A stretch of DNA of 64,000 nucleotides from a virus (IMGVR_UViG_3300035180_001680); one strand, 5' to 3'; counted from the first letter of the stretch, positions 16,721 to 60,029 are shown. Notes: a model not told the origin generated them from the sequence alone. A program made the numbers and translations.

Positions 16721-16805
16721 TGGTCCACCCGGAGGGATTCGAACCCTCATAGTCAAAGACGCGAGATTAAAAGTCTCGTACCGTACCAGTTCGGTGTCGG
16801 ATGGA
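16721..16805 (-). tRNA. tRNA-Lys(UUU), long variable arm
   Basis: CGAGA-CTTTTAA-TCTCG anticodon arm, T-arm, CCA. Confidence 0.85.
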
Positions 16806-16809
16806 AATA

Positions 16810-16883
16810 TGGTACACCGCCACGGTATTGAGCCGTGTTCTACAGGGTAAGAGCCTATTGCATCACCTTAATGCTTGCGGTGC
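16810..16883 (-). tRNA. tRNA-Lys(CUU)
   Basis: ATAGG-CTCTTAC-CCTGT; CCA. Confidence 0.85.
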
Positions 16884-16892
16884 ATTATATTT

Positions 16893-16967
16893 TGGTAGGG
16901 CGCCTGGAATTCGAATCCAGCCTAAAAGATTAAAAGTCTTCTGTGCTTCCGCTGACACTAACACCCC
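16893..16967 (-). tRNA. tRNA-Lys(UUU)
   Basis: GAAGA-CTTTTAA-TCTTT; CCA. Confidence 0.85.
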
Positions 16968-16980
16968 ATTAAATTCCACT

Positions 16981-17069
16981 TGCTCCGGTCCGAGGAATCG
17001 AACCTCGCCTCCTTTCGGAGCCTTCGCATTAACAGTGCGAGACCTTCACCAAGCCAGTCCGACCGGAGC
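16981..17069 (-). tRNA. tRNA-Asn(GUU), long variable arm, no encoded CCA
   Basis: TCGCA-CTGTTAA-TGCGA; V-arm CTCC-GAAA-GGAG. Confidence 0.85.
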
Positions 17070-17080
17070 AAGTGAAACTT

Positions 17081-17154
17081 TGGTAGTCCCTAGAAGAATT
17101 GAACTTCTGTATCTGCCATGTCACGACAGCACTCTACCATTGAGTTAAGGGACT
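17081..17154 (-). tRNA. tRNA-Val(GAC)
   Basis: CTGTC-GTGACAT-GGCAG; CCA. Confidence 0.8.
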
Positions 17155-17160
17155 ATTAAA

Positions 17161-17173
17161 TTTTTAAAGAACA
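17161..17173 (-). promoter_or_regulatory. boxA-like element
   Basis: TGTTCTTTAAAAA between terminator and first tRNA; rrn boxA consensus TGCTCTTTAACA. Confidence 0.65.
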
Positions 17174-17174
17174 T

Positions 17175-17207
17175 AAAAAAAGCCTCGGGAGATTTCTCTG
17201 CCGAGGC
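17175..17207 (-). terminator. Intrinsic terminator of attenuator 1
   Basis: GCCTCGGCAGAG-AAAT-CTCCCGAGGC followed by T7. Confidence 0.9.
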
Positions 17208-17227
17208 CTATTAACTTTTGTTTACTT

Positions 17228-17329
17228 TCAGATGATTAGTTTGATTTCAACAGTCAATGCCTCGGCGTGTGAACGTTTATTATTAACGTTTACATTATTG
17301 ATAAAAATTGGTTTAGTTGAATCGAACAT
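17228..17329 (-). CDS. Leader peptide 1 (Asn/Val/Lys): MFDSTKPIFINNVNVNNKRSHAEALTVEIKLII
   Basis: 33 codons; contains antiterminator GCCGAGGC (17259-17266) complementary to the terminator 5' arm. Confidence 0.85.
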   Translation of the reverse strand: MFDSTKPIFINNVNVNNKRSHAEALTVEIKLII

Positions 17330-17365
17330 TTGTAAATTCTTTAAGTTTGTTAAGTTAGTGTTATA

Positions 17366-17394
17366 AGTATATATGACTTATTTATGAAAGTCAA
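17366..17394 (-). promoter_or_regulatory. tRNA-operon promoter 1 (sigma70 plus embedded late ATAAATA)
   Basis: TTGACT-N17-TATACT with ATAAATA in the spacer; same block at 23326, 36623, 60373. Confidence 0.9.
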
Positions 17395-17592
17395 CAAAAG
17401 TTTACAGATAACTGTTGCAACTTCATAATCTTTAGATTTTTTTCAAATCTTCGTCATCTTTTTCATATCCTTTTTTGAAATCCCTCATACCTCTGTCAAA
17501 TTGTTTTTCAAGCGTACGAAGTCGGCGTGGTTCCTATGTTTTTTTGATAGTTCAGTAAATTCGTCTACTAAATCCGCTTGTGTATCTTCCAC

Positions 17593-17868
17593 TCATTCAG
17601 ACATTAAATGGGTTGCATCTTCACGCAACTGTTTTGTCTTACCTTTTGTGATTTCACTTTCATTCAACTTTTCCATACCACTCTTCGTAATCTTTCCAAC
17701 AATCTTTCCATCTTTCTTTACTTCGACAGGGTATCCCGTCTTTTCAGAATGTTTCTTCATTGTCGAAATCACTTCTGGTGTAAGATTAGCAGCACTCGTG
17801 ATAAATCCATTGGACTTTGAACAATAAAACTTATATAATTCAGTTTCAAATAATTGTTTTAATTTCAT
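17593..17868 (-). CDS. Hypothetical late protein, MKLKQLFETE N-terminus
   Basis: ATAAATA upstream; shared N-terminal motif. Confidence 0.55.
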   Translation of the reverse strand: MKLKQLFETELYKFYCSKSNGFITSAANLTPEVISTMKKHSEKTGYPVEVKKDGKIVGKITKSGMEKLNESEITKGKTKQLREDATHLMSE

Positions 17869-18018
17869 TATTTTTCTCGGTTATTCGAGTTATTTATTAT
17901 TAAGCGTGTTGGTTTCCAATAATCATAAAGTGATTGTATAAAACATGATTTTTACCACGTAAAAACCAAATCACGGTTGCCATTGCTCTCAAAGACGTTG
18001 TTTTAATTACCATTTGAC

Positions 18019-18237
18019 TTATCCTTGAAGGCTTTCATGGGCCTTTTCATTTAAAATATACCCATATTTATCGGAAAACTCATTCAATTCATCATCAGAC
18101 ATATTTGACCCATCTTCAAACGTACCTGAACAAAAATAAGCATCACAGAAATCAGGATAATCTAAAGAATCAACTCCATCAACCTCCAACGAATTAACAT
18201 TTACTTCTTTATCATTGATAATAAATTGTTCAGTCAT
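18019..18237 (-). CDS. Hypothetical phage protein
   Basis: VDGVDSLDYPDFCDAYF; operon packing. Confidence 0.6.
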   Translation of the reverse strand: MTEQFIINDKEVNVNSLEVDGVDSLDYPDFCDAYFCSGTFEDGSNMSDDELNEFSDKYGYILNEKAHESLQG

Positions 18238-18521
18238 AGTTTTTCATTCCTTTCCAAGATTGGATTAATAGTTACACCAGAAGGGCAATCGTTATTTTCA
18301 AAAAGTTTAAAATTTGTGTATGGGTTACCACAAACAACACATTTTGTATATGGAGTTATTGAAGATCTTTGTCCATTATATAATGTTTGTTGGTCTTCAA
18401 TTGATAGTGTATCGAAATATTCATTAAAAGTGTTAACAATATTTTGAACATATGCCAATGATACACCAAAATGAACCTGTCCACATTTTTTACACGTCGT
18501 ATATCTGATATCGTTGTTCAT
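18234..18521 (-). CDS. Zn-finger hypothetical protein
   Basis: CKKCG...CVVCG. Confidence 0.6.
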   Translation of the reverse strand: MNNDIRYTTCKKCGQVHFGVSLAYVQNIVNTFNEYFDTLSIEDQQTLYNGQRSSITPYTKCVVCGNPYTNFKLFENNDCPSGVTINPILERNEKL

Positions 18522-18538
18522 TTTTCATCTCCATAAAT

Positions 18539-18614
18539 TGGTCCCGTCGGTCAGATTCGAACTGACAAAATAATAGTTTAGGAAACTATTGCCTTTCCCT
18601 TTGGCTTCGACGAG
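18539..18614 (-). tRNA. tRNA-Arg(CCU)
   Basis: ATAGT-TTCCTAA-ACTAT; CCA. Confidence 0.85.
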
Positions 18615-18622
18615 AAAGAGTC

Positions 18623-18829
18623 TTACTTCTTAACCCTTTTTAAAGCATCTTTGCGCATTAACACTGTTCTATCATTTCCATATTTGTGAACTTGAAGAAA
18701 CTCAACTCCGTCGATTGAACGAATGTCATAGATGTCGTTGCATTCCCACCGCTCCTGATTTATCGGGTTTTCAAAAATCCCTGGAACTGGTACTGGTTTT
18801 ACTGCTTGTTTTACTTTTCGCTTATCCAT
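18623..18829 (-). CDS. Hypothetical phage protein
   Basis: ORF with RBS. Confidence 0.55.
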   Translation of the reverse strand: MDKRKVKQAVKPVPVPGIFENPINQERWECNDIYDIRSIDGVEFLQVHKYGNDRTVLMRKDALKRVKK

Positions 18830-18984
18830 TTTTATTCCTTTTTGGTGTCAACTTCAAATTCTTTTTGAAGTTGTTCTAACAATAAACGCCTAGATTCTTT
18901 ATCTTTTCTAAGTTTTTGTAACTTTCGTTCTTTTGCCTTTTGAGCTCGAAGTTGTGCTTTTTTACCCGTTCTACTTCTGCCTCA

Positions 18985-19272
18985 TCACTCAATCTGAATT
19001 TCTTTGAAAATTTGTAATCGTTGTTTTGTGTCCGTTAACCATTCTTTTGATGTAGTATGAGCACCTTCATCGTAATCTTTATCGCCATTGTAAATGCACA
19101 CAACACAATTAGTTGTGACTAATAAAATTTCCCGATGTTCTTCATCGATCTTAATTTCATCAAACGATTCTCCATCAAAAAACACAAAGCAGTCTTCATT
19201 TTCAGAAATAATAGAAATAACCTTTTCAGTGAATTTGCGTGCATTTAACCAACGTTTATCAAAAATGTTCAT
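18985..19272 (-). CDS. Hypothetical protein
   Basis: ORF in operon. Confidence 0.5.
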   Translation of the reverse strand: MNIFDKRWLNARKFTEKVISIISENEDCFVFFDGESFDEIKIDEEHREILLVTTNCVVCIYNGDKDYDEGAHTTSKEWLTDTKQRLQIFKEIQIE

Positions 19273-19371
19273 TCTGGGTCACCTGTTATAGTTAACATAT
19301 CGGTTGTACTTTTGAGCACCATTTAAATTTTCTTTAAGTGTATATTAATACTCTATACTTTCAAGGCGGTC

Positions 19372-19731
19372 TCAAGATGTAATACCTCGAGGCTTTGAAT
19401 TGATATATACAACTCGTTTGCTGCTATATCGTTTTTCAGCAATATCCTTGTCAGTAACGTATGCATCGTCTTCCCAATCAACATATCTTTTGTAAGAATT
19501 TTTCAGTTCTTTAACCTCTTCAGGTGTAAATTGAAAGTTCATGTTATTTTGGTGTCTACCTTCTTCAGATTGACACTGTTTCATGTAATTTTCGAATGTC
19601 ATTCTAACTAAACTTCCTTCAATGAATTTGGAATCGATGTGCATATAATCGCCGACCATGCTATTCCACAACACGACTTCAGGATTACCTTCAAGTTCTG
19701 TTAACATTTTAATCAAGTCATTCTTTCTCAT
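19372..19731 (-). CDS. Hypothetical protein
   Basis: ORF in operon. Confidence 0.5.
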   Translation of the reverse strand: MRKNDLIKMLTELEGNPEVVLWNSMVGDYMHIDSKFIEGSLVRMTFENYMKQCQSEEGRHQNNMNFQFTPEEVKELKNSYKRYVDWEDDAYVTDKDIAEKRYSSKRVVYINSKPRGITS

Positions 19732-20078
19732 TTGATTTTTCCTGGCGTAATAATTATTGTTGCAATGCAGTGTTGGTTCCTTGGAAGGTCTTTTTCACAC
19801 TGAATCACATTCTTGTGAAGCTGCCGCGCCATGGTGTTCAGTGTTGTATTATACACATATAAGTTATATCCAAGCCATCCCAAAGAAAAACTTATCACAC
19901 CAGTCTAGGTATAAAATTCCATAATTACGTAATGGTCACCGACAGGCATCTTTGTCTTTGTACTAACTCACGTTTTAGTTCCTTAGTTCATGATTTATCC
20001 TAAAATTGCTATATCGACATCATACTTACACTAATGTTAAAAGACAACATAAATATTAAATAACGACTGGGACATGAA

Positions 20079-20510
20079 ATGAGATTGAATGAGATTTTTA
20101 ATTCGAGTGTAGAAATACATGTTGACGTTAAAACATATGAGGAATGTAAAATGTTTTTCGTGGTTGGGGAGATGGAATATGTTTTCCATGCTTATGAGAC
20201 ACAAACGAATGATGACAAAGGAAATCAGGTTTGGAACGTTGCATTCCGTGCTCAAAAAGGAAATCAAACGTCACACGGAATAACAGGTTCCGGAAATGCT
20301 TCTCAAGTTATGGCTGCTGTTATCCAGTGTATTAAAAAATGGATTGAATTATATCCAAAAGTTGTTACGTTCTTCTTTTCTGCAAAATTAGATGAACCAT
20401 CCAGAGTAAAATTATACAACCGAATGGCTCAATCTATTAAAGTTCCAGGGTGGAAAATGTATAAGGAAACGTTCAAAACCAAAGAACTATATTATTTTAC
20501 AAAAGGTTAA
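20079..20510 (+). CDS. Hypothetical late protein, MRLNEIFN N-terminus
   Basis: ATAAATA at about 20049; shared N-terminal motif. Confidence 0.65.
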   Translation: MRLNEIFNSSVEIHVDVKTYEECKMFFVVGEMEYVFHAYETQTNDDKGNQVWNVAFRAQKGNQTSHGITGSGNASQVMAAVIQCIKKWIELYPKVVTFFFSAKLDEPSRVKLYNRMAQSIKVPGWKMYKETFKTKELYYFTKG

Positions 20511-20722
20511 TTGTTAATTTTCCCTTGTTCAATATTATCTAAATGTTTTCTAATGTAACGCATAAACAATATTGCTTTGTCAGAATCGTTGAATACTCCA
20601 TCCCCTGTGTCTGATACTGGAACAGGAAATTCAAATCCATTACTTGTTTTATACCATAATTCATTTTGTCTATAAAACTGAAAATGTACAGTTTGGTCTT
20701 TCACTAACTCTTTAACGTTCAT
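20507..20722 (-). CDS. Hypothetical phage protein
   Basis: FEFPVPVSDTGDGVF...KAILFMRYIRK. Confidence 0.6.
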   Translation of the reverse strand: MNVKELVKDQTVHFQFYRQNELWYKTSNGFEFPVPVSDTGDGVFNDSDKAILFMRYIRKHLDNIEQGKINN

Positions 20723-20855
20723 GATAAAATTCCTTTTTTGAGGTGGGATATAAAAAGTTGTGGACTTTTTTCTTCGTCTGTTGACTCGTGCTTTCACGTT
20801 TACACTAAAATCCCATTGTTGTATTTGTACTACAGAAATACACAGAATTGTGTAT

Positions 20856-20927
20856 TGGTCCCCTTGGCCTGAATCGAACAGGCATAAGGTCGCTTAGAAG
20901 GCGTCCCACCACTCCATTGGCAAGGGG
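20856..20927 (-). tRNA. tRNA-Arg(UCU)
   Basis: GACGC-CTTCTAA-GCGAC; CCA. Confidence 0.75.
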
Positions 20928-21168: not shown

Positions 21169-21173
21169 AATAA

Positions 21174-21590: not shown

Positions 21591-21598
21591 ATAATTTT

Positions 21599-21678
21599 TG
21601 GCGGGTGTGAAGGGAATTGAACCCTCCTGATTTTCCGAAGTGACAGTCCGGTGACCACGCCATGCAGTCCCCACACCC
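21599..21678 (-). tRNA. tRNA-Asp(GUC)
   Basis: CCGGA-CTGTCAC-TTCGG; CCA. Confidence 0.85.
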
Positions 21679-21773: not shown

Positions 21774-21858
21774 TGGTACCACCGGTTGGAATCGAACCAA
21801 CTTTGAGGTTTCCCTCCAGGATTATCGGTCCTGTGCCTAACCTATCGGCCACAGTGGT
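21774..21858 (-). tRNA. tRNA-Ile(GAU), long variable arm, C33
   Basis: CAGGA-CCGATAA-TCCTG; V-arm GAGG-GAAA-CCTC. Confidence 0.8.
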
Positions 21859-45455: not shown

Positions 45456-46244
45456 TCAACGATTGATTGAGTAATCATATAAGGCTGAAAATATTTTTGA
45501 TACGTTATGATTGTAAAAACCTGATGAGTTAATACAGTTAAATTCTATAACCTTTATTTTGTCATCGACAAGAGCTGTGTCCATAACACAACACGGACTT
45601 GGTACCCACTTATCGGCGAATTTTTGTGCTTCTTTTATAACGCCAGTTTCCGTTTCATGATTTTTAATTAATCGTCCATTTGCACGGTACATGGAACCGT
45701 CAACAATTTCCCCTCCAACAACAAACCAACGCCATTCAGCTTGAATCGTCTGTGGTTCAGCAAGAACAATCATCGTTTCCGGTTCCATTTTATAAGTACC
45801 AGACATGTCACATTCCATTGCATCTTTGAGCCATTCTCTACATTCTTTCGCTTCAATAATTTGTCCAGAAAATTGTTTCAGATCTTCTGAAGGACGAATA
45901 AACCAAAGTTCGTTATCTGGTCTCGTGTGTAAAAACTCAATCGTCACGTTCAATGGTTTAATGAACTGTGCATTCATCATATCGTCACGGTTGGATGCAG
46001 CAGCTTCGTAATTGAATTTAGCTAAATCAAAATAGAGACCTTCCCATTTTAATTCATAATCAAGGTTTGTTAATAGTGTTGAACCATAAGGAATGTATTT
46101 GGTTCCTGTTAATGGTTCGGTTGAAGTTATTTCTCGAGAGAAAGGAATTAATCCAACAAATTCATGTGGGTAGTGTTCAACAGCAGCTTTTGTTAACTGA
46201 AGTTGTTCTTTATCCATTAAATTGTGTTGAATAAGAAATTTCAT
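45456..46244 (-). CDS. ATP-grasp domain protein (DUF4343-like)
   Basis: FIRP..DLKQFSG, EWRWFVVGG, VMDTA, VIEFNCINSSGFY. Confidence 0.8.
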   Translation of the reverse strand: MKFLIQHNLMDKEQLQLTKAAVEHYPHEFVGLIPFSREITSTEPLTGTKYIPYGSTLLTNLDYELKWEGLYFDLAKFNYEAAASNRDDMMNAQFIKPLNVTIEFLHTRPDNELWFIRPSEDLKQFSGQIIEAKECREWLKDAMECDMSGTYKMEPETMIVLAEPQTIQAEWRWFVVGGEIVDGSMYRANGRLIKNHETETGVIKEAQKFADKWVPSPCCVMDTALVDDKIKVIEFNCINSSGFYNHNVSKIFSALYDYSINR

Positions 46245-46450
46245 TTATTTAACTCCTCTCACTATAATATAACCAATCGCGCCGTCCGCACACATCACAT
46301 TTATACCCTTCTGTGTCCATGTCTTTATCTTTTGGGTCTCTTTTCATATTTGGACAATCGTGAATTTCGTATCCAGGGCGAATTTTGTCTTTGTTGATAC
46401 ATCAAGGACGACAATCTTGATTTATTTGCACGATTTACTTCTATTGTGTT

Positions 46451-46538
46451 TGGCGGAAGTAGTAGGATTTGAACCCACGTGCCCTTTCGGACCATCTGCT
46501 TTCAAGGCAGCGCCAATAAACCGCTCTGGCATACTTCC
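46451..46538 (-). tRNA. tRNA-Ser(UGA)
   Basis: CTGC-CTTGAAA-GCAG; long V-arm; CCA. Confidence 0.9.
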
Positions 46539-46626
46539 AATACTATTTACTCGAACAACTTTGTCCCCAATAACAAATTCTTTCTCCAACACACCGACCA
46601 GTTTCTTTCCAAACCAATCTCCCTCT

Positions 46627-46980
46627 TTAACTCGTTACAACATCGCTGTCTCCTGTTACAGGAATAATTTCCATTAAAGTTTTGTTCGTTGAGTTTTGTT
46701 CATTTGCTTCTCGAATCTGTTCCGCAAATGACGCATACACACTACCCATTAAACCACTCATACGTTCAGACCCCTTATAACAAACATACACGGAACCAGA
46801 AGAATTTGTAAATTCATAACGGTCATCGAATTCTTCTTGTTGTGTAATACCTGAACTTAACTTCCAACTGTCACCATTAAGGTATCCACCATACCAACCT
46901 GCAAAAATCTTTTCTATTTCTCCAAATTCATCATTTGTGAATTTGACCTTAACCCAACAATCTGGTGTATATTTACTCAT
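46627..46980 (-). CDS. Hypothetical phage protein
   Basis: KIFAGWYGGYLNGDSWKLSSG. Confidence 0.65.
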   Translation of the reverse strand: MSKYTPDCWVKVKFTNDEFGEIEKIFAGWYGGYLNGDSWKLSSGITQQEEFDDRYEFTNSSGSVYVCYKGSERMSGLMGSVYASFAEQIREANEQNSTNKTLMEIIPVTGDSDVVTS

Positions 46981-46995
46981 ATTATATTCCAAAAG

Positions 46996-48498
46996 TTAAA
47001 TTGTAACGAGTTGATAACGTTCACTGTTAATAACATCAAGCATCAAATCATAAGCAGACAAAAATTCTCCACCTATTGTATGCTTAAAGATAGACGGACT
47101 ACATCCACTAACCATTTGAAAACCACGCTCATCCATACTCATTGGAAACTGTTGGTTCTGAGCATCAACATTCCAAAACACCAAATTGGGCATTGTATAT
47201 CCACACTCACCAAATTCTTTAGAAATTGTTTGGAATAATTTTTCGTCAACCATACCCCGACCTTGATGCTCATAAGAATATCTAGCGTTGCTTGTAGCGG
47301 CATCAAATTCCATGTCAGAAATGATATACAACTTCTGTGGTAATTCAGATTGTGCTAACTTGTTTTGTTTGGCAACAGTAAGAATCAAACGGAACACAGC
47401 TTGAATATCTGTATTCATTTCCCATGCAGAACTATTCATATTGGCTATTTTTTCAACAAGGTCAGCTCCCTGAATTTTAAGTAGTTGAGGTGTAGAGCTA
47501 AAAGTAATGAACTTGTTATGATAAGCTTCACAAGTGTTACGTTCAGCCAAATACATTCCAACCGAAATGGCAACTTCCAATGGAAGACCAGCCATAGAAC
47601 CAGACACATCAACTACAGCAAGAGCATTTTCTTGTTTATCTCCAATATAGTTTGGAAGAGCGTCCCACAACGCATCCATGAGTTGGCGTTCGTGTTGTGG
47701 TGTGTTCCTGCCCATCGTAAATGCTTTGCGGACGATTTCATATGGAAAAAGAACACTCGCATTGATTTTCTTTTCGCCAGTCTTTAAAGAATCCAAGAAT
47801 TTCTTACGGCGTTCAGCATCGTGCGCGAAAAAAGCTTTCCCATATAACAAGTTAGCTTGAGAGGGAACGGCACTGTATTCAATACTATCCCACTGATTGG
47901 CAGACACCAACCGTTCAACAATGTTAATTTTCTTACGAAGAGTGCTCAACATCAAGCGATATGCTTTGGATCTTAATTTAAGACCCTTACGAGTTTTTGT
48001 TGCAAGTCGTTTCGTTTCTTTTGAAGAAGCGTTTTCACTTTTCAACCATTTTGCAAGCAACGAGGGATGTTCAGATGCCACGTCTTCGGTAATCTGTGTA
48101 AAGATTAGTGCAATCGCATCTGTTTCAAGTTCTGTATCAAATAACACATACAAATCATCCCAACGTCCAAAGTATGGAATAAGTTTAATGTTTTTACGGA
48201 CAGCGTCAGGGTTAACGTTAATCAACCACTTTAATTGCTTTCTAAACGTATCACGTTCACCTTGACCACCACGAGCGTCCCTGAAATAGAACATAGCACG
48301 AGTGGCTAACAATGCATTTTCTGCATAAGCTTTTGAAAACAAATGAAGAATTTCATCATCATCACGATTGCGGAGTGCACCACCCTGTGCAAACAAATCC
48401 AACATAGCTGATTTGGTTGTATCAAATGCAACAGCACCATTTTCCGTGTGTGCTACATTGGTTGTAATAGAAAGGGCATCCACAAATTCTTTGCTCAC
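46996..48498 (-). CDS. TROVE/Ro60-like plus vWA protein (DUF2828-like)
   Basis: TENGA, RDARGGQGER, GRWDDL, AKWL, VVDVSGSM (MIDAS), SDMEFD. Confidence 0.8.
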   Translation of the reverse strand: MSKEFVDALSITTNVAHTENGAVAFDTTKSAMLDLFAQGGALRNRDDDEILHLFSKAYAENALLATRAMFYFRDARGGQGERDTFRKQLKWLINVNPDAVRKNIKLIPYFGRWDDLYVLFDTELETDAIALIFTQITEDVASEHPSLLAKWLKSENASSKETKRLATKTRKGLKLRSKAYRLMLSTLRKKINIVERLVSANQWDSIEYSAVPSQANLLYGKAFFAHDAERRKKFLDSLKTGEKKINASVLFPYEIVRKAFTMGRNTPQHERQLMDALWDALPNYIGDKQENALAVVDVSGSMAGLPLEVAISVGMYLAERNTCEAYHNKFITFSSTPQLLKIQGADLVEKIANMNSSAWEMNTDIQAVFRLILTVAKQNKLAQSELPQKLYIISDMEFDAATSNARYSYEHQGRGMVDEKLFQTISKEFGECGYTMPNLVFWNVDAQNQQFPMSMDERGFQMVSGCSPSIFKHTIGGEFLSAYDLMLDVINSERYQLVTI

Positions 48499-49449: not shown

Positions 49450-50370
49450 TTTACTTTGTATAAGGTTGAGATTAAACCTATACTATTGATACCTTCGAGA
49501 CATTATCTCATCACCTGCTACAGCTAGAGTTCTTCTCTTATCCACATAATCAGCTTTCGCACAACTATGTCTATCAACATGACTGCATTTTTTAAGTGGT
49601 TGCTTTTCCACCAACATGTAAAGCTACTCGATTATCTGTCTACCGCCAACCTTGCGAGCTGTACAAGAGCGCTAACTCTCTGCGTGCGACTTTCTTTCAA
49701 CATCCTCGACCTTGCGAGTTTTGGACGCCTTCATTACCTTGCGGCTGAAGGATTAAGCCATTTTCACTTTACACTGGAAACGTCTTTGCGTTTTATGTAA
49801 TATAATCCAAATTTATATGGGCTGTTAACCCTAACATTGTTAAACCTACCAAGAAGTGCGTTTCCAGTGGATTTCATACCTTTTGAGTATAAAAATACCA
49901 CACTCCTCATGTTTTTCATCTGCCGACTACTCAACCAGTTTTCAGGAATCGTGACACCCTATTACAGGTACCAAAACCCCCTCAACTTGCACAACAGCCC
50001 TTACTTGCGGGTTCGGACCACTGTACTACCCTTTACCTTTTGAGATGGCTAGTTTGTGTAGGCGTGAGGTCGGCACAACCCGTTACTCTCCAAATGCCCA
50101 AGTTCCCTGCAGAGCAGGCTTGTAAACATTCGTTCTTTCCACACCCCTAACTTCCCTCATATGACTACCGTTGGCGATAATCAGCTCCTTTCGGAGTAGG
50201 TCAGGCTTGCTTGTTTGTACCCCTTACAGGGCGCGGTAGTTGTAGGACCTACCGCTTTCACAACATCGCTGTTGGTTACTTTGCACAAGCGCGTAATTCT
50301 TTATCTTTTAAATTGTTTCTGATGAAACGTTCTGAATTCACAGAACTAATTAAAAGAGTGACTTTCTTAA
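49450..50370 (-). ncRNA. Giant structured ncRNA, GOLLD/ROOL-like
   Basis: About 900 nt without a credible ORF; many GCAA/GAAA-capped hairpins on the minus strand; downstream of a tRNA; TTGACT promoter near 50410. Confidence 0.6.
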
Positions 50371-52696: not shown

Positions 52697-54033
52697 CAAT
52701 CTCTCAACTAAGAAAACCCCAGATGCTTCAACATCGGGGATGAATTAGTTGATCTCTCTTCTAACTTCCCCCATAAATACTCTTATACAAAGGGAGAACA
52801 CCACTTGCATAAAGCATACACGTTCCGATTAAATCCGACAACAGATCAGGAAACCGCGCTGAAACAGACAGGTGGATCAGTTCGTTGGTTGTGGAACCAA
52901 ATGTTAAAAGCAAATATTGACAAATATGCTGCTGAGGGGAAGTTTAATTTTCAGTTCGATATGAACCGGATGACAACGAAGTTGAGGGCCGAGATTCCGT
53001 GGCTTGAAGAGGTGAATAGCCAGGTTTTGCAGCAGAAAAACAGGGATTTAGATAAATCAATCAAAGCAAAAATCGCAAGGAAAACCAAACAGACTGGATT
53101 TCCTAAATTTAAGAAAAAGACAGAAAACAATGATTCATTTCGAGTTCCTGGTGGTTTTAAGTTATCGAATAAAGGCGTAAAATTGCCTAAAATCGGATGG
53201 ATTTCGTGGAAAATCAATAGAAAACTTCAGGGGAAAGCGAAAAATATTACATTTAAACAAGTAGGTGATAAGTGGAACGCAGTTGTTTTGTGCGAGATTG
53301 CTGATGTAGAACCAAGAACATTGTTTTCTGATGCCGAAGTTATCGGAATTGATGTTGGAATTAAAGATTTTGCTGTGTTGAGCAATGGAAAGAAGATTGC
53401 TAATCCCAAGGACCTTGAGAAGAGTTCTCGGTTGTTAAAGAGAAAACAACAATCACTCTCTAAGAAGGTTAAAGGATCTTCCAATCGAATCAAAGCAAGA
53501 AAATCTGTTGCTAAGTTGCACAGATCTGTAGCAAATAAAAGAAAAGACTTCCAGTGGAAACTAGTTGATTTGATAACCAAAAATCACTCAGTTGTTTGCA
53601 TGGAAGACCTGAATATTAGCGGAATGGTCAAGAACAGAAAGTTGGCTAAATCAATCGAATCTGCTGGATGGAGAATGTTTAAAGAAAAACTTAAACATAA
53701 ACTAGCAGAGACAGGTGGTTTGGTTGTCAATATCCCTAGATTTGCTCCATCTTCTAAAATGTGCTCATCGTGTGGAGCATTAAATCATTCTCTGACTCTA
53801 AAAGATAGAGAGTGGAAATGTGATTGCAATGCTGAACACGATAGAGACATTAACGCTGCGATTAATATTCGGAATATTGGTTTAAATACGCTGGGAACTA
53901 GCGGAATTTACGCCTGTGGAGTTGCCTCTGATGGGGATATAGCATATGATATATCTAGTTATGCAATGATGAAGCAGGAAAATCTGGGCGTTGGCCTGGA
54001 AGCCCCAAATGCTTTAGCATTGGGGTAGTTCAC
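52697..54033 (+). mobile_element. IS200/IS605-family (IS1341-type, tnpB-only) element
   Basis: TAM TTTAT, left-end hairpin CCCCAGATGCT..CATCGGGG, right-end hairpin ending TTCAC; excision restores the host reading frame. Confidence 0.92.
52805..54028 (+). CDS. tnpB: TnpB RNA-guided endonuclease
   Basis: HTH N-terminus; RuvC GIDVG, MEDL, DRDINAA; CSSCG/CDC zinc finger. Confidence 0.95.
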   Translation: MHKAYTFRLNPTTDQETALKQTGGSVRWLWNQMLKANIDKYAAEGKFNFQFDMNRMTTKLRAEIPWLEEVNSQVLQQKNRDLDKSIKAKIARKTKQTGFPKFKKKTENNDSFRVPGGFKLSNKGVKLPKIGWISWKINRKLQGKAKNITFKQVGDKWNAVVLCEIADVEPRTLFSDAEVIGIDVGIKDFAVLSNGKKIANPKDLEKSSRLLKRKQQSLSKKVKGSSNRIKARKSVAKLHRSVANKRKDFQWKLVDLITKNHSVVCMEDLNISGMVKNRKLAKSIESAGWRMFKEKLKHKLAETGGLVVNIPRFAPSSKMCSSCGALNHSLTLKDREWKCDCNAEHDRDINAAINIRNIGLNTLGTSGIYACGVASDGDIAYDISSYAMMKQENLGVGLEAPNALALG

Positions 54034-54804: not shown

Positions 54805-55074
54805 TCAGTGTGAAAGCCACTGGAGTGCCATATCAATATCGTTATCTAATATATCAACAAGACGTTTTTCCCAGTCATAAGTTGAACTAATATTTACCAT
54901 TCCTGGGACGTTTATATCCATTGGTTCAAATAACACAATAGCCATTTCACAATCAGAAACAAAATCAACGAAACCGACGATTTTATCATCAGAATCGTCT
55001 AGGACGAAACATCCAGGATATCCATGCTCAATATTCTCTTGAGTTGCTTTTATTTTGTAATATTGAGTTATCAT
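54805..55074 (-). CDS. Hypothetical protein
   Basis: Operon packing. Confidence 0.5.
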   Translation of the reverse strand: MITQYYKIKATQENIEHGYPGCFVLDDSDDKIVGFVDFVSDCEMAIVLFEPMDINVPGMVNISSTYDWEKRLVDILDNDIDMALQWLSH

Positions 55075-55520
55075 TGTTTTAGTAATCCTTTAATAATATC
55101 AGATGCAACTTTCCCGTCATACATGCCCCCGTGTGTATTTTTTAGATATTGCATAATAAGACCTGTTCCGTTTGATGTTGCAATCCCACCATTTAAAATA
55201 AATTTAGTAATAACAGAAGTCAATTCTTCAACGGAAAGTTGTTTCGGAAGGTAATATTCCAAAATTTCTCGTTCAATTTCTAACGCGTCACGCCAGTCAG
55301 CATCCTGTCGGTCACCAGCGTAAGATATATTTTCGTTGACACCTTTAAGGAATTTTTTAATTGTGTTTATAACTTCTGCATCGGTTGGGTCTCTAGGTGG
55401 TGTAGCATTTTTTCCAACCATCAACGCTTCACTGTAAAGTGTGGTCAACAAACTTACAGCGTCGGATTTAGATTTACGTGCAACAATTTGGTCAGTTTTA
55501 ATTTGTTCAATAAGAGACAT
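55071..55520 (-). CDS. GatB/YqeY domain protein
   Basis: IKTDQIVARK...EILEYYLPKQLSVEEL...GLIMQYLK...DGKVAS. Confidence 0.85.
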   Translation of the reverse strand: MSLIEQIKTDQIVARKSKSDAVSLLTTLYSEALMVGKNATPPRDPTDAEVINTIKKFLKGVNENISYAGDRQDADWRDALEIEREILEYYLPKQLSVEELTSVITKFILNGGIATSNGTGLIMQYLKNTHGGMYDGKVASDIIKGLLKQ

Positions 55521-55994
55521 TTATTTTTACCTTTAAAGTTAAGAATTCTTGCTCGTGGTTTGGTGAACCTTTGTGTTTTGTGAACACATGGAACAAAAGA
55601 TATCCCATTATCTATTAAACATCAGTTGGTGTCAACATTTATTATTAATTTTCACTTTAGCCGTTTCAGCATCAGTGTCGATAATAATAGTTAAATATTC
55701 TCCATATCTAACCCACTGTGATATGATATCATAAAGTTCTTCACTTCGGTCATCACGTATTGATTCAATTTCTTGTGACGAAAGACCTGTTACGTCTACC
55801 ATACTCTGTTTAACAGCGTTAGCAATACTTTCAGATACACCATCGGGGGGTCTTTAAATGTTAAATTAAATTTCATGATTATTCCCCATTAGTTGGAGTC
55901 TTCAAATTGCCCACAGCAGACTGATATATACGTTCATACACCTGCCTGAACACTGTGTGGTCAGATTAACTTAAAAGTGAATAAACGTCAATAA

Positions 55995-56624
55995 CTATTT
56001 AAATAAAGAGGGTAATGCAACTGAACCACGTTGAACAACAACTGCGTCATCATTATTATCAGCATAAAAAAAGTATTGAGAGTTATCAGCATACACAATT
56101 TTCCAATATCCAGACGGAATTGGAAGACCATTAATTGTTTGTTTGTTTTCGTATACTGCTATCGTTACAACATAAACATCTGTTTTTGAAGAATCAAAAA
56201 TACTTCTTACTTTTTCTTCTAGTAACTTCCACTCAACTCTATTTAAAGTTGGAGATTGTGGAGTCATATTTGTCAATAAAAAAGTTTCTTTCATTTCTTC
56301 TAAAGAAGATGCATCATCAGCAGGTGCCATATGACCTTTGTCATAATGTGTTTTTAAATATTGGCGGTTGTTAGGAACAAAACCAACCCTATCATCAGAA
56401 TGAAAATTGTTTGTTCGTTTTACTGACCCTACTGGGGAATTGTGTTTCAATAATTCTGATACAGCAATTACCTTGTGGTTGATAGTGTCATAATCCGATA
56501 CGTAAAAACTATTACAAAGTTCAGTAGTATTAGGAATGTTAAACGGTTTATGATCTGGGTATAGTTGAGGACAGTCTGCAAACGCGAAAGAAGAAACTAA
56601 AAGAAGCCCAAATAGAAATTTCAT
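55995..56624 (-). CDS. Secreted DNA/RNA non-specific endonuclease
   Basis: Signal peptide; YDKGHMAPA, TFLLTNMTPQ, LNRVEWKLLE; TATAAATA upstream. Confidence 0.9.
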   Translation of the reverse strand: MKFLFGLLLVSSFAFADCPQLYPDHKPFNIPNTTELCNSFYVSDYDTINHKVIAVSELLKHNSPVGSVKRTNNFHSDDRVGFVPNNRQYLKTHYDKGHMAPADDASSLEEMKETFLLTNMTPQSPTLNRVEWKLLEEKVRSIFDSSKTDVYVVTIAVYENKQTINGLPIPSGYWKIVYADNSQYFFYADNNDDAVVVQRGSVALPSLFK

Positions 56625-56649
56625 ACAATAACTCCAAAAAGGGTATTTA

Positions 56650-56982
56650 TATTTTTGGCTTTATTGAGTTGGTCCTGTGTAATTAATTTGCCCAATATTT
56701 GTTTTTTGTGTTGTTGAACTGATTTAACTAGTCTATGAACCCCATCTAATACTACCAATTTACCTTTCGATTTGATAACAATTATAGGATGTGAAGTATC
56801 TGCCTTGATTGTTCGCTGTTTTTCTGTTTTAGTGTATGGGGGAATCCAAATTAAATCAGATACTTCAAACTCTTGGGGCTTGACGTTTTTAATTATTCAT
56901 AATAATTTATTAACGCTATAATCATTTCCTTCAGAGCGAATAATGCTCGAATCTTCTTCTTGATATTGTTCCCATAATAACA
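56650..56982 (-). pseudogene. Interrupted ParB-like fragment
   Basis: HPIIVI...VLDGVHRLVK with an in-frame stop upstream. Confidence 0.45.
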
Positions 56983-56984
56983 TA

Positions 56985-57236
56985 TTATTCCATTGAACTT
57001 ATTACACGTTGAAGTGCAGAACGGATTTTATTCATATTAGATAGAACAGCAGAGGCGTGTTTCTTCTTATCTACGGGGTTTTTCATCTTGTTAACAATTC
57101 CCAAACCACGTTTTGCAGCATCCATCATTGATGCAATTTGGTCCAAAGAAACGTTATCAGGAATCTCGACTGCTTCAATAAGCATTTCCGATTGACCAAT
57201 TCCAGCGAGTTCCATGAGTCTTGATGTTGTTGTCAT
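56985..57236 (-). CDS. Hypothetical late protein (RLMELAGI motif)
   Basis: ATAAATA about 30 nt upstream. Confidence 0.6.
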   Translation of the reverse strand: MTTTSRLMELAGIGQSEMLIEAVEIPDNVSLDQIASMMDAAKRGLGIVNKMKNPVDKKKHASAVLSNMNKIRSALQRVISSME

Positions 57237-57240
57237 AATA

Positions 57241-57516
57241 TTATCCTTTAATTGTTGTAGTATTTATCCAAAGACTGTACGGATGTTCATATTTACAACT
57301 AAACATTACAGAATTAAAGGATTTTCCGGGGAACTCTTCAAGAAAGATATTTGTATGATAATCACTTATAATCATATATGATAGTGTATACTCTCCACCT
57401 TCAACCAATCCAAGTTTTCTAGCTTGAATGCGATTATAATCAAGACCGTGTTCATCAAGAAACCTTACTTTCGTTCCTGGTGGAGCATATAATAAATCAG
57501 TATGAGTCATATTCAA
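57241..57516 (-). CDS. Hypothetical protein
   Basis: ORF with RBS. Confidence 0.5.
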   Translation of the reverse strand: MNMTHTDLLYAPPGTKVRFLDEHGLDYNRIQARKLGLVEGGEYTLSYMIISDYHTNIFLEEFPGKSFNSVMFSCKYEHPYSLWINTTTIKG

Positions 57517-57730
57517 TCCTGTTTTTAATTTAAGTCCAAAAGAACGGGGTTTCCCCCTGTCCTATTACTTATAGCTGCAAGTTCTGCGCAACACTGTATT
57601 AGGTTGTAATCAACAAACTGGTTTGCGATTTTTCGAAGTTCTTTATAATCACGTTCCGACACAGTTCACCTTATCAACAAACATTTAAAGTAAAGATACT
57701 TTACACTAATGGAGAGTAAAAGTCAACAAT

Positions 57731-57853
57731 TGGTTGTTGTGGTAGGACTCGAACCTACACAAGCTGCTGGAAGGGTTACTATTTTAGTCTGTCTTCACAG
57801 AGCTCCCCACTATGATTCCACCGCCGGGGTATACCAATCCCCCTCACACAACA
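57731..57853 (-). ncRNA. tRNA-scaffold RNA with a branched insertion replacing the anticodon loop
   Basis: Intact acceptor, D and T arms and CCA; about 50 extra nt. Confidence 0.6.
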
Positions 57854-57856
57854 ATT

Positions 57857-57949
57857 TGGTAGTCCTGGTGGGTAACGCTCCCACTACTTGCCCTCATCTA
57901 GGACCTTGGATGTTTATAAATCATCTTGTTTTCTTTAAACTACAGGACC
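57857..57949 (-). tRNA. tRNA-Ile(UAU), long variable arm, atypical T-loop
   Basis: GATGA-TTTATAA-ACATC; CCA. Confidence 0.7.
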
Positions 57950-57957
57950 AATTTGTT

Positions 57958-58042
57958 TGGTGTCTCGAGGGAGACTCGAACTCCCACCTTTCGGTCAATT
58001 GTTTTTGAAACAATTCAGTCTACCAATTCCCTGCACCGAGAC
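57958..58042 (-). tRNA. tRNA-Leu(CAA)
   Basis: ATTGT-TTCAAAA-ACAAT; CCA. Confidence 0.88.
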
Positions 58043-58061
58043 AAATTTAAAACTTTAAAAC

Positions 58062-58152
58062 TGGCGGAAGGTACAGGAATCGAACCAGCGGCTCTACTTA
58101 GATGCCGGCGACTGCTTTCAAAACAGTTTGTCTGCCATAGACACTACCTTCC
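58062..58152 (-). tRNA. tRNA-Ser(UGA)
   Basis: ACTGT-TTTGAAA-GCAGT; CCA. Confidence 0.85.
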
Positions 58153-58157
58153 ATATA

Positions 58158-58661
58158 TCACTTTCTGTGTTTAATACACCGAGTTGAAATCCAACCCCGG
58201 CCACCCACAGTTCCTCGTGCACCACACACTTCACAAATCATTTTACTTTGATATTCAGCAAACTGAATTGCTGAATATTGTTCTTCGGTTGCGTTAGAAA
58301 CATAAAACCGAAGAGTTCCAAATTTTTCTTTCACTTGCCGAGCAACAGGAATCGAAAGTTCTGCATCATCCATCCTTACTTTGGTTGCGGCAATCAACTC
58401 AGTTGTGATAATAGGGTTAAAATCACTTTCAGGACTACCTGGATACAAAAGTTGACCAAGGTTAGGCACCATACGATCGTATGTGTATTTCTCATAGATC
58501 CAATCGCTGCACAAAAATTCAGACAATTGATTAATAAGATTAAACCAACCATCTCCACAAGTAACCCCCCAACACATACAAGTTTCACTCATCGGAAGAG
58601 TGTGTTCTTTATATAGAGCAGGATACTTCTTAAAAAGATAATTTTGATAATGTCTGTTCAT
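58158..58661 (-). CDS. Hypothetical phage protein
   Basis: CGDGWF...QVKEKFGTLRFY...CEVCG...WISTRC. Confidence 0.65.
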   Translation of the reverse strand: MNRHYQNYLFKKYPALYKEHTLPMSETCMCWGVTCGDGWFNLINQLSEFLCSDWIYEKYTYDRMVPNLGQLLYPGSPESDFNPIITTELIAATKVRMDDAELSIPVARQVKEKFGTLRFYVSNATEEQYSAIQFAEYQSKMICEVCGARGTVGGRGWISTRCIKHRK

Positions 58662-58717
58662 TTTTAGTCTCTCATCATATATTAAATGATATTTTAAAAT
58701 GACGAAAATGTCAACAC

Positions 58718-58805
58718 AGGTCCGAGTGACCGGATTCGAACCGGTACGACCTTTCGGCCGGCAGGGTTTAAGCCTGCTGCATCTACCTAATTACACCACA
58801 CTCGT
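58718..58805 (-). tRNA. tRNA-Leu(UAA)
   Basis: GCAGG-CTTAAAC-CCTGC. Confidence 0.85.
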
Positions 58806-58810
58806 AATTT

Positions 58811-58894
58811 TGGTGCCCCAGACGGGAGTCAAACCCGTAAAAACCTGCGTTCTTAGCGCAGTATCTGTACCAATTTGCATTTGTCACCGGGGGC
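58811..58894 (-). tRNA. tRNA-Leu(AAG), near-duplicate of 59545
   Basis: CTGCG-CTAAGAA-CGCAG; short V-loop. Confidence 0.75.
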
Positions 58895-58906
58895 AATTTA
58901 ACTGTC

Positions 58907-58990
58907 TGGTCCGCAGGGAGGGATTCGAACCCACAAAAGCACTACCGTTTGAAGATAGGGGCTGTACCAATTTACCTAAGCCACCTGCGG
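58907..58990 (-). tRNA. tRNA-Leu(CAA)
   Basis: CTATC-TTCAAAC-GGTAG; CCA. Confidence 0.78.
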
Positions 58991-58995
58991 AAATA

Positions 58996-59086
58996 TGGCG
59001 GAGAGTACAGGAATCGAACCAGCGGCTCTACTTAGATGCCGGCGACTGCTTTCTAGGCAGTTTGTCCACCATGGACGCTACTCTCC
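58996..59086 (-). tRNA. tRNA-Ser(AGA)
   Basis: ACTGC-CTAGAAA-GCAGT; body nearly identical to Ser(UGA) at 58062. Confidence 0.82.
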
Positions 59087-59092
59087 AATATT

Positions 59093-59179
59093 TGGTCGGC
59101 AAGGGGGGATTCGAACCCAACCAAGAGCACTGGAACTTAAATCCAGGGGCTGTACCAATTTACCTAAGCCACTTGCCGA
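59093..59179 (-). tRNA. tRNA-Leu(UAA)
   Basis: CTGGA-TTTAAGT-TCCAG; CCA. Confidence 0.75.
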
Positions 59180-59246
59180 ATAGTACCTAATGAGGGATTC
59201 AAACCCTCGCTCACCTTGTCATATAGATTAATGAGACAAACGTGGT

Positions 59247-59348
59247 TGGTGGCCACAGGATGGGAATTTAACCCACTTATCCAGAGGAATGGGAGCTACG
59301 CCTCGAGGAATCTCCCACAGTGCTGTTTCAACTACACCTATCTGCGCC
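59247..59348 (-). ncRNA. tRNA-like RNA with a 16-nt anticodon loop
   Basis: TGGGAG-ATTCCTCGAGGCGTAG-CTCCCA; T-arm; CCA. Confidence 0.5.
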
Positions 59349-59357
59349 ATAATATTT

Positions 59358-59430
59358 TGGAGCGGGCTATGAGATTCGAACTCACCTCTTTCGGCTTGGA
59401 AGGCCAAACGTACACCACTTGACAACCCGC
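59358..59430 (-). tRNA. tRNA-Gly(UCC)
   Basis: TTGGC-CTTCCAA-GCCGA; CCA. Confidence 0.88.
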
Positions 59431-59439
59431 ATTAAATTT

Positions 59440-59536
59440 TGGAACCGTATTGCAGTCACGCTCTGCCTGTGTTGCACCTGGACTCCAAGTACAACTCTTA
59501 TTGATTCTTACCAGCACCTACTGGAATGATACGGTA
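59440..59536 (-). ncRNA. tRNA-like RNA with non-canonical arms
   Basis: ACCGTAT/ATACGGT stem plus CCA; GCAG-AGCGTGA-CTGC in the T-arm position. Confidence 0.4.
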
Positions 59537-59544
59537 ATATTTTT

Positions 59545-59627
59545 TGGTGCCCCAGACGGGAGTCGAACCCGTAAAAACCTGCGTTCTTAGCGCAGTAGCT
59601 GTACCAATTTGCATTTGTCACCAGGGC
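59545..59627 (-). tRNA. tRNA-Leu(AAG)
   Basis: CTGCG-CTAAGAA-CGCAG; CCA. Confidence 0.8.
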
Positions 59628-59760
59628 AATATATCATGTTTTAATCTTTATAAATGTTCACGTTCTAACTGTTTTCTTGTGTATCGAATTGTGGTTCGTT
59701 TAAATAACCAGATACCACCAACAAAGCGATTGTTCCAAATAACACACAACAGGACAAACT

Positions 59761-59837
59761 TGGTACCCAACCTCAGATTCGAACTGAGAACCACAACGTT
59801 CTAAGCGTTGCCGCGTTACCAATTAGCGTAGAAGGGT
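59761..59837 (-). tRNA. tRNA-Leu(UAG), short variable loop
   Basis: CAACG-CTTAGAA-CGTTG; CCA. Confidence 0.85.
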
Positions 59838-59846
59838 ATTAAATTT

Positions 59847-59936
59847 TGGTGGGGAGAGGACAGAATCGAACTTCTTGCCACGAGGGACAGGGGCTACAAC
59901 CCTGCGCCAGGACCACCTAGCCTTATTTCACTCCCC
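59847..59936 (-). tRNA. tRNA-Tyr(GUA), divergent
   Basis: CAGGG-TTGTAGC-CCCTG; weak T-stem. Confidence 0.65.
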
Positions 59937-59943
59937 TTTATTT

Positions 59944-60029
59944 TGGAACGCTAGGTAGGATTTGCACCCACGTGGGCTTTCACCATCTGCTTTGCAGGCA
60001 GTTCCGTTCGTCTACTCCGGCACTAGCGC
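59944..60029 (-). tRNA. tRNA-Cys(GCA), long variable arm
   Basis: CTGC-CTGCAAA-GCAG; U73; CCA. Confidence 0.85.

Follow-up and report, generated by a model that had tools for sequence, protein, structure and literature searches.

Exchange of long and short variable arms among tRNAs of a giant T4-like phage and its relatives

The virus record IMGVR_UViG_3300035180_001680 of the IMG/VR database (178,796 bp, about 52% complete) carries a dense array of tRNA genes, several of which have a variable arm of the class opposite to that expected from their anticodon, either a hairpin arm (class II) where a short loop (class I) is usual or the reverse. The 64,000-nucleotide (nt) stretch analysed here, referred to as the window, corresponds to positions 33549-97548 of this record read on the minus strand and has a G+C content of 36.7%. 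A T4-type major capsid protein is encoded on the record, and the source is a giant T4-like phage. Genes were called with ARAGORN, including its bracket structures, and with Rfam covariance models and alignments; ARAGORN found 38 tRNA genes in the window and, for the whole record, 42-54, all of which point the same way. A preliminary description of the window had reported hairpin variable arms on tRNAs for Lys, Asn, Ile (two genes), Glu and Cys and the loss of the long arm from three tRNA-Leu at 59761, 59545 and 58811. Each gene that it named was recovered in place, on the minus strand, by ARAGORN and Rfam; the hairpins were borne out by the ARAGORN structures and Rfam alignments, and the loss of the arm holds for the three tRNA-Leu and extends to a further Leu(CAA) at 58907-58990.

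Six tRNAs with class I anticodons have variable regions of 13-23 nt that form hairpins, a class II arm being taken to need at least 10 nt folded as a stem-loop:

16721-16804, minus strand: tRNA-Lys(UUU), 84 nt (Lys84); ARAGORN, Rfam tRNA model 50.5 bits
16982-17067, minus strand: tRNA-Asn(GUU), 86 nt (Asn86); ARAGORN, tRNA-Sec model 33 bits, below the cut-off
21774-21858, minus strand: tRNA-Ile(GAU), 85 nt (Ile85); ARAGORN, Rfam 49.4 bits
35881-35967, minus strand: tRNA-Glu(UUC), 87 nt (Glu87); ARAGORN, Rfam 40.8 bits
57857-57949, minus strand: tRNA-Ile(UAU), 93 nt; Rfam 29.3 bits (borderline), ARAGORN at a lower threshold
59944-60029, minus strand: tRNA-Cys(GCA), 86 nt (Cys86); ARAGORN, Rfam 43.6 bits

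No copy other than the long-arm gene is present for Asn, Ile(GAU), Glu or Cys on the 179 kb available from this incomplete record. Lys84 has an ordinary paralogue two genes away, with a 74-nt Lys(CUU) between them:

16893-16967, minus strand: tRNA-Lys(UUU), ordinary paralogue, 75 nt, 3-nt variable loop; ARAGORN and Rfam

The 13-nt variable region of Lys84 folds into a mini-hairpin of 3 base pairs (bp) and a 3-nt loop, which is marginal as a class II arm, on a body with a 4-bp class-I-type D stem, C1-G72, A73 and an encoded CCA. Asn86 has a variable arm made of a 4-bp stem and a GAAA loop, U1-A72, G73 and a single linker nucleotide 5' of the D stem; it lacks an encoded CCA, and its flanks lengthen the acceptor helix to 14 bp (a leader-trailer helix). 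Its orthologues L384 and L344 have G73-CCA and show compensatory changes in the variable, D, anticodon and acceptor stems, and their comparison disclosed a D arm of its own conserved type. The 9-bp Sec-like acceptor suggested by the tRNA-Sec model was ruled out, as the orthologues reach G73-CCA after 7 bp; the extra pairs of Asn86 belong to the leader-trailer helix.

The arm of Ile85 is likewise a 4-bp stem with a GAAA loop, in a tRNA with A73, CCA and a class-II-type D arm; in its orthologue (L214:11386-11473) the variable stem differs in sequence and is still paired. Glu87 combines a Glu-type D arm with a 16-nt variable region, forming a GAAA-capped hairpin, and U73; its acceptor and T stems can be folded as either 7/5 or 8/4 bp, and long-arm Glu tRNAs occur also in G005, G010, L214 and other relatives. 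Cys86 has a class-II-type D arm, a hairpin variable arm and U73, is without the 2-71 and 3-70 pairs of E. coli, and has a 3' half closely similar to that of Ser(UGA) at 46451-46538. Another 16 unique long-arm Cys tRNAs were found in IMG/VR loci, with U73 in 16/16. Ile(UAU) has an arm of about 21 nt, together with A73, CCA and non-canonical D and T loops. The D arm typical of class II (3-bp stem, enlarged loop) was thus seen in Cys86, in Ile85 and in a family of Lys(UUU) tRNAs from IMG/VR, and not in Lys84.

Conversely, at least four tRNA-Leu of the window have short, hairpin-free variable loops, and they stand alongside tRNA-Leu and tRNA-Ser with the usual long arm, the Leu genes being listed together:

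58811-58895, minus strand: tRNA-Leu(AAG)-like, near-duplicate of 59545-59627, 5-nt variable loop, oversized D region
58907-58990, minus strand: tRNA-Leu(CAA), 7-10-nt unstructured variable region; the ARAGORN label Lys(ctt) is wrong, the loop being misplaced
59545-59627, minus strand: tRNA-Leu(AAG)-like, 83 nt; Rfam 20.9 bits (partial), ARAGORN at a lower threshold
59761-59837, minus strand: tRNA-Leu(UAG), 77 nt; ARAGORN, Rfam 48.1 bits
about 59097-59172: degenerate Leu relative with a UAA anticodon, related to Leu(CAA) 58907-58990
57958-58042, minus strand: tRNA-Leu(CAA), ordinary long arm; ARAGORN and Rfam
58719-58805, minus strand: tRNA-Leu(UAA), ordinary long arm; ARAGORN and Rfam

Leu(UAG) has a class I shape with a 4-5-nt variable loop, a Leu-type D loop and A73, and its T arm is identical to that of the 77-nt tRNA-Leu of the T5-like phages DU_PP_V and Kamaji. 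The gene at 59545-59627 has a 5-nt variable loop, an oversized D region of 23 nt, A73 and CCA. Leu genes of 75-78 nt occur also in the tRNA clusters of relatives, and the discriminator (base 73) of short tRNA-Leu is A in 48/50 genes of the pooled phage sets.

Relatives were chosen by identity of the major capsid protein and their tRNA clusters were fetched. These contain long-arm Thr(UGU), Met(CAU), Trp, Glu, Asn, Lys(UUU) and Ile(UAU), often adjoining a paralogue of normal length. In G005, a complete genome of 363.5 kb, a 91-nt tRNA-Asn (Asn91) equals the neighbouring 76-nt one (Asn76) with a clean insertion of 15 nt, the anticodon arms being identical. A pattern for long-arm Lys(UUU) matched 111 IMG/VR stretches against 28 matches in 596 Gb of prokaryote genomes, the latter mostly in dense tRNA arrays on contigs of metagenome-assembled genomes, so that the design is strongly enriched in phage relative to cellular DNA. 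Long-arm Lys(ttt) genes were present in 80/80 of the loci scanned first, and 30 such genes were present in the other 31 loci. The corresponding pattern for Asn matched at least 118 IMG/VR stretches, with 105 unique genes among the matches listed, and altogether more than 200 IMG/VR stretches hold class-swapped genes. A control set of 80 loci, fetched through a 167-amino-acid (aa) open reading frame (ORF) located between tRNAs of the window, comprised distant phages only; here long class I arms were rare and nearly half of the Leu genes were short.

The mean folding energy of the variable region in 177 unique long-arm phage tRNAs with class I anticodons was -2.84 kcal/mol, against -0.75 kcal/mol for shuffled sequences, and GNRA loops cap 71/177 (40%) of them. 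As judged from the gene sequences, the class-swapped tRNAs are neither a product of chance nor an artefact of the callers. Their origins are multiple: the D arm of Lys84 is of class I while the IMG/VR Lys(UUU) family has class II D arms of Ser/Tyr type, Cys86 has a Ser-like 3' half, and Asn91 is explained by an insertion. The parent body of the odd tRNAs could not be resolved by global pairwise identity, as all tRNA pairs score 57-70%. BLAST against GenBank phages gave no full-length relatives of Lys84 or Ile85, and relatives were reached only by structure-aware patterns and by the choice based on the capsid.

The exchange of class is widespread in phages and apparently undescribed; no description was found in the literature searched, which included a 2020 review of non-canonical tRNAs and did not extend to subscription-only papers. 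Cultured phages already contain such genes, with annotations that make no remark on them. In phiCbK (JX163858) both Lys(CUU), of 87 nt, and a 91-nt Lys(UUU) are long, the latter (L326:668-758) lying directly after the tRNA-Lys(CTT) that is annotated as 84 nt. Phages CcrBL9 and XacN1 carry long tRNA-Lys beside normal genes. A 12-gene tRNA array on a genome contig of the isolate Thalassospira xianhensis MCCC 1A02616 (NZ_JPWA01000001, L309) includes long-arm Lys(CUU) and Lys(UUU), 88 nt each; the array probably belongs to a prophage or island, and it may provide a culturable system.

In order to assess which amino acid these tRNAs carry, acceptor ends were compared in pooled long-arm phage tRNAs, in samples gathered with patterns aimed at long-arm Lys or Asn, whose frequencies are biased accordingly. 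The discriminator and the 1-72 pair track the anticodon as they do in phage isoacceptors of normal length. Long-arm Asn has G73 in 17/17 and 95/105 genes of two pooled sets, mostly with U1-A72; Trp has G73 (7/7) and A1-U72, Cys has U73 (4/4), Gly U73, His C73 and Ile A73 (A in 10/10 for UAU), while Lys has A73, with U73 as the minority base in both length classes. In the window the ends are U1-A72/G73 for Asn, A73 for Lys and both Ile, and U73 for Cys. Arm loss affects 93/220 unique Leu genes, 2/149 Ser and 3/93 Tyr, and arm gain is found mostly in Lys, Asn, Thr, Met, Ile, Trp, Cys and Glu. According to the published identity rules, E. coli leucyl-tRNA synthetase (LeuRS) needs A73 and tertiary contacts of the D and T loops, not the long arm (PMC9976931), and the long arm is a determinant for Ser (PMC9976931, PMC7609411); Lys and Asn identity resides in the anticodon and base 73, and that of Lys, Asn, Thr, Met, Ile, Trp and Cys chiefly in the anticodon and acceptor end (PMC9976931, Table 1).

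Since the discriminator varies with the anticodon, the long-arm tRNAs do not share a single Ser, Leu or Tyr identity, which would give one discriminator. Arm loss in Leu and hardly in Ser or Tyr, as these rules would have it, argues for charging by the cognate synthetase, and so does arm gain where the synthetase reads the anticodon and acceptor end. The long-arm tRNAs are probably charged by their cognate synthetases and not mischarged with Ser, Leu or Tyr. That the tRNAs remain chargeable, as the preliminary description supposed, has indirect support in the acceptor ends and in arm loss being essentially a property of Leu, where the arm is dispensable to the synthetase. Truncated E. coli tRNA-Leu and animal mitochondrial tRNA-Leu, both without the long arm, are comparable (PMC9976931): in them A73 and the D/T-loop contacts suffice for leucylation, and the short phage tRNA-Leu keep A73 and often a Leu-type D loop; the phage genes differ in being natural, presumably used in the bacterial cytoplasm, and placed beside normal long-arm Leu.

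The statement, given in the preliminary description as established, that bacterial long arms are confined to Leu, Ser, Tyr and Sec is correct for ordinary tRNAs but has published exceptions, the allo-tRNAs, which were described along with bacterial and phage (8/4) tRNA-Ser/His (Mukai et al. 2017, PMC5389517). Allo-tRNAs resemble the present ones in joining a long arm to anticodons other than those of Ser, Leu and Tyr (UAU and GUC among them) and in their irregular cloverleaves; moreover, a pair of 91-nt tRNA-Ser of the window has the published 8/4 fold, and Glu87 and its relatives may have it. However, allo-tRNAs have 8/4 or 9/3 folds, a Sec-like D arm and Ser identity (G73 or U73), and insert Ser at other codons, whereas most long-arm tRNAs of the window are 7/5, with acceptor ends that follow the anticodon. 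Lys84, Ile85, Cys86 and Ile(UAU) are all 7/5, the Asn86 orthologues have 7-bp acceptors and Glu87 is ambiguous; Ser identity was not found, and a 6-bp Sec-like D stem occurs only in an 80-nt tRNA-Asp and an 80-nt tRNA-Ala, both without a hairpin arm. Being mostly 7/5 and without Ser identity, the long-arm tRNAs are not allo-tRNAs. The nematode nev-tRNAs and other eukaryotic tRNAs with variable arms (PMC3333845) also place Gly or Ile anticodons on class II bodies, but the nev-tRNAs have Leu-type bodies, are leucine-charged, and are eukaryotic and non-viral.

Long-arm Ile(UAU) tRNAs form a conserved family: besides the one in the window, members occur in the Acinetobacter phages Acj61 and P577 and in over ten IMG/VR loci. 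Members include:

57857-57949, minus strand: the window member
L327:409-501: family member
L328:401-491: family member

In alignment A1 of the family 94% of the cells pair and 19/22 pairs are changed on both sides. The extra arm has a 7-nt loop with an invariant G-A-U-N-A, in which the final A is the equivalent of A38, and its stem has C-G at the equivalents of positions 29-41 (12/13) and 31-39 (11/13); the motif recurs in 13/14 further long Ile(UAU) members. The same loop and C-G features are determinants that bacterial isoleucyl-tRNA synthetase (IleRS) reads in the anticodon branch (PMC9976931). C29-G41 is found in 43% of phage Ile(GAU) anticodon arms, in 3/30 of the UAU anticodon arms themselves and rarely in other isoacceptors. 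As both the loop motif and the stem pairs match the IleRS set, the extra arm appears to imitate the anticodon arm of Ile(GAU). A linker of 4-5 nt follows it, and it is topologically possible for the GAU hairpin to serve as anticodon arm; a conceivable route is an arm-swapping conformer with this hairpin in the anticodon-arm position, followed by what would then be a normal 4-5-nt variable loop. It is possible, though unlikely, that the arm is a deliberate copy letting an IleRS that is blind to U34 charge an AUA decoder without lysidine, and that the phages re-engineer tRNA bodies arm by arm, separating the features read by the synthetase from those read by nucleases and the ribosome.

The explanation put forward here is that the genes encode genuine phage tRNAs with exchanged class I and II bodies and charging true to the anticodon, which the host machinery would accept and whose shape would evade nucleases; its chances are judged to be about even. 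Host synthetases, EF-Tu and the ribosome would tolerate the exchange, while the altered silhouette may make a poor substrate for enzymes that read tRNA shape or cut in or near the variable region, such as defence anticodon nucleases, the Septu and retron PtuAB, and nucleotidyltransferase or Schlafen-type toxins. Phage translation would then continue once the host versions were destroyed, and the CCA-adding and RNA-repair genes of the window may serve the same conflict. Nuclease evasion, proposed by the preliminary description, seems a reasonable motive by analogy with the defence-resistant tRNAs of T5, namely tRNA-Tyr against retron-Eco7 and Septu PtuAB and tRNA-Lys against PARIS AriB (PMC13096335, PMC11555353, PMC11464382, PMC10264068). 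T5 tRNA-Tyr resists retron-Eco7 by its distinctive variable loop (PMC13096335), AriB cuts tRNA-Lys at 40/41, adjoining the variable region (PMC11464382), PrrC, AriB and a bacterial Schlafen all attack tRNA-Lys(UUU), and MenT3 prefers long-arm tRNAs (PMC7450476). The Lys(UUU) arm adjoins the AriB cut site. The CCA-adding enzyme, Swiss-Army-Knife repair domains, R2K ATP-grasp and DUF2828 protein of the window also speak for evasion, as does the enrichment of the design in phage over cellular DNA. The T5 tRNAs are phage isoacceptors of targeted tRNAs with an altered recognition site, the decisive difference of tRNA-Tyr being in the variable loop, and the window tRNAs may be of the same kind; T5, though, keeps the normal class of the isoacceptor and relies on point substitutions, whereas here whole arms are added to class I tRNAs or removed from Leu.

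Several observations weigh against this explanation. The pooled frequencies carry the sampling bias mentioned above. The documented escape of T5 tRNA-Lys acts through the anticodon stem-loop and not through an arm, and as the long and short Asn of G005 share one anticodon arm, shape would be the only source of any benefit there. The U73 of Glu87 is a minority base among phage tRNA-Glu, and the long arm of this tRNA violates deletion-47, an identity element of E. coli glutamyl-tRNA synthetase, the bacterial enzyme reading the core as well (PMC9976931). The pattern of arm loss and gain is exactly what permissiveness of the synthetases would predict by itself. Neutral structural drift, with hairpins that come and go without benefit in relaxed, fast-evolving arrays wherever the cognate synthetase is indifferent, is a rival considered rather unlikely. 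It is favoured also by the many window tRNAs that are irregular in unrelated ways (non-G starts, 8-nt variable loops, Sec-like D stems, 8/4 folds) and by the independent origins seen in the D arms of Lys84 and of the IMG/VR Lys. Yet diverged orthologues keep their arms through compensatory changes, GNRA caps are far above chance, long-arm Lys tRNAs have co-adapted class II D arms, and viral collections contain the design far more often than cellular ones, all of which speaks against drift.

Other blemishes may point to decay: C33 instead of U33 in Ile85, UGC rather than UUC in the T loop of Cys86, the irregular loops of Ile(UAU), two U-U mismatches in the acceptor stem of Leu(UAG), weak scores of both Leu(AAG)-like genes with the callers, and Asn86, which among Rfam models is scored only by tRNA-Sec, below threshold. 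The genes might then be pseudogenes, regulatory RNAs or decoys that soak up nucleases; T6 tRNA-Tyr has been proposed to act as a decoy, and Mukai et al. judged most allo-tRNA(UAU) to be unused in translation. This is improbable, given that four of the long-arm genes are sole copies on the sequence available, that most genes encode CCA and have intact stems, and that the blemishes are absent from orthologues (U33 in L214; a canonical T loop in the Ile(UAU) of G010). A very unlikely option is that GNRA hairpins, which are stability elements, steady tRNAs whose anticodon arms are A/U-rich and which are produced in large amounts, with incomplete modification, late in infection: most arm-gaining anticodons are indeed A/U-rich (UUU, CUU, GUU, UGU, CAU, UAU, UUC), but Trp, Cys and Gly gain arms too and the loss of arms in Leu is left unexplained. 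Most improbable is recoding, in which the seryl-, leucyl- or tyrosyl-tRNA synthetase, enzymes that take little or no notice of the anticodon, would charge the class II bodies, and codons for Lys, Asn, Ile, Glu and Cys would be read as Ser, Leu or Tyr, in the manner of allo-tRNAs and nev-tRNAs. The 3' half that Cys86 has in common with a tRNA-Ser, the Ser/Tyr-like D arms of the IMG/VR Lys, the use of G73 or U73 with a long arm as Ser identity by Mukai et al., and the A73 of Lys and Ile, which also fits Leu and Tyr, all agree with it. However, a single synthetase would not yield acceptor ends that vary with the anticodon as in normal isoacceptors, the arms are short (3-5 bp) against the 16-21 nt of the phages' own Ser arms, and missense across the proteome, at the codons most used in an AT-rich phage, would carry a high cost.

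The remainder of the array contains further irregular tRNAs and other RNAs:

21599-21678, minus strand: tRNA-Asp(GUC), 80 nt; Sec-like 6-bp D stem, 5-nt loop, 8-nt variable loop
36093-36172, minus strand: tRNA-Ala(UGC), 80 nt; same D stem and loop and 8-nt variable loop as the tRNA-Asp, G3-U70 retained
49463-49908, minus strand: GOLLD RNA; Rfam 198.8 bits
50908-50981, minus strand: tRNA with anticodon CUA (amber suppressor type), about 1 kb from the GOLLD RNA
58062-58152, minus strand: tRNA-Ser(UGA), 91-nt paralogue of Ser(AGA), 8/4; ARAGORN and Rfam
58996-59086, minus strand: tRNA-Ser(AGA), 91 nt, 8-bp acceptor and shortened T stem (8/4); tRNA-Sec model 36.5 bits
59852-59935, minus strand: tRNA-Tyr(GUA), a second irregular one
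60036-60150, minus strand: tRNA-Tyr-like, with an insertion of about 33 nt within the anticodon loop that folds into a hairpin of its own

The two 91-nt tRNA-Ser are 88% identical, and together with the adjoining Leu genes they look as if a block had been duplicated and its anticodons had then diverged; anticodons with A34 (Leu AAG, Ser AGA) are uncommon in bacteria. Removal of the insertion from the Tyr-like gene would give back a Tyr GUA loop, and the insertion does not reach the length of a group I intron; in its 3' part the gene shares 87% identity with the annotated tRNA-Tyr of Alishewanella phages. CUA tRNAs occur also in the relatives G004 and G005. There is no clear sign that TAG is recoded: ORFs become only modestly longer when it is read as sense, and although few long main-strand ORFs end in TAG, 11/131 still do.

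Protein-coding genes, most of them with a bearing on RNA or translation, were identified by domain matches and are given as context:

9228-9641: 2H-SAK, weak match
10140-10850, minus strand: CCA-adding-type nucleotidyltransferase, PolyA_pol head domain (tRNA maturation or repair)
13367-13936, minus strand: HAD domain of Swiss-Army-Knife RNA-repair proteins
28475-29488: phosphoribosyl pyrophosphate synthetase
30674-31105: peptide deformylase
45456-46244: R2K ATP-grasp
52805-54028, plus strand: IS605-family OrfB/TnpB-like (OrfB_IS605, Cas12f1-like TNB, RuvC), inside the tRNA region
55071-55520: YqeY-like protein

The RNA-repair and translation neighbourhood (9228-16599 and 45456-48498) also includes cytidylyltransferase-like, HD phosphohydrolase and DUF2828/DUF7788 genes. 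A 373-aa ORF at 12238-13359, adjoining the repair genes, had no Pfam or PDB match.

What is new here is the asymmetry between loss and gain of the arm and the Ile(UAU) family whose arm appears to mimic the Ile(GAU) anticodon arm. Annotation pipelines may mis-score or mislabel such genes, as with the second long tRNA-Lys of phiCbK, for which the GenBank record, as viewed, lists no tRNA feature, and the Ile(UAU) genes of Acinetobacter phages, labelled 'similar to tRNA' or 'tRNA-OTHER'. The division into class I and class II is a textbook rule behind identity rules, annotation software and designs in synthetic biology, and these phage arrays break it in a lawful manner; they constitute a natural and very large mutational data set on the tRNA shapes that bacterial translation tolerates. 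They also offer a testable hypothesis on how phage tRNAs may be protected from tRNA-cutting defences, for which cultured systems exist in phiCbK and Caulobacter, XacN1 and Xanthomonas, and the T5-like phages.

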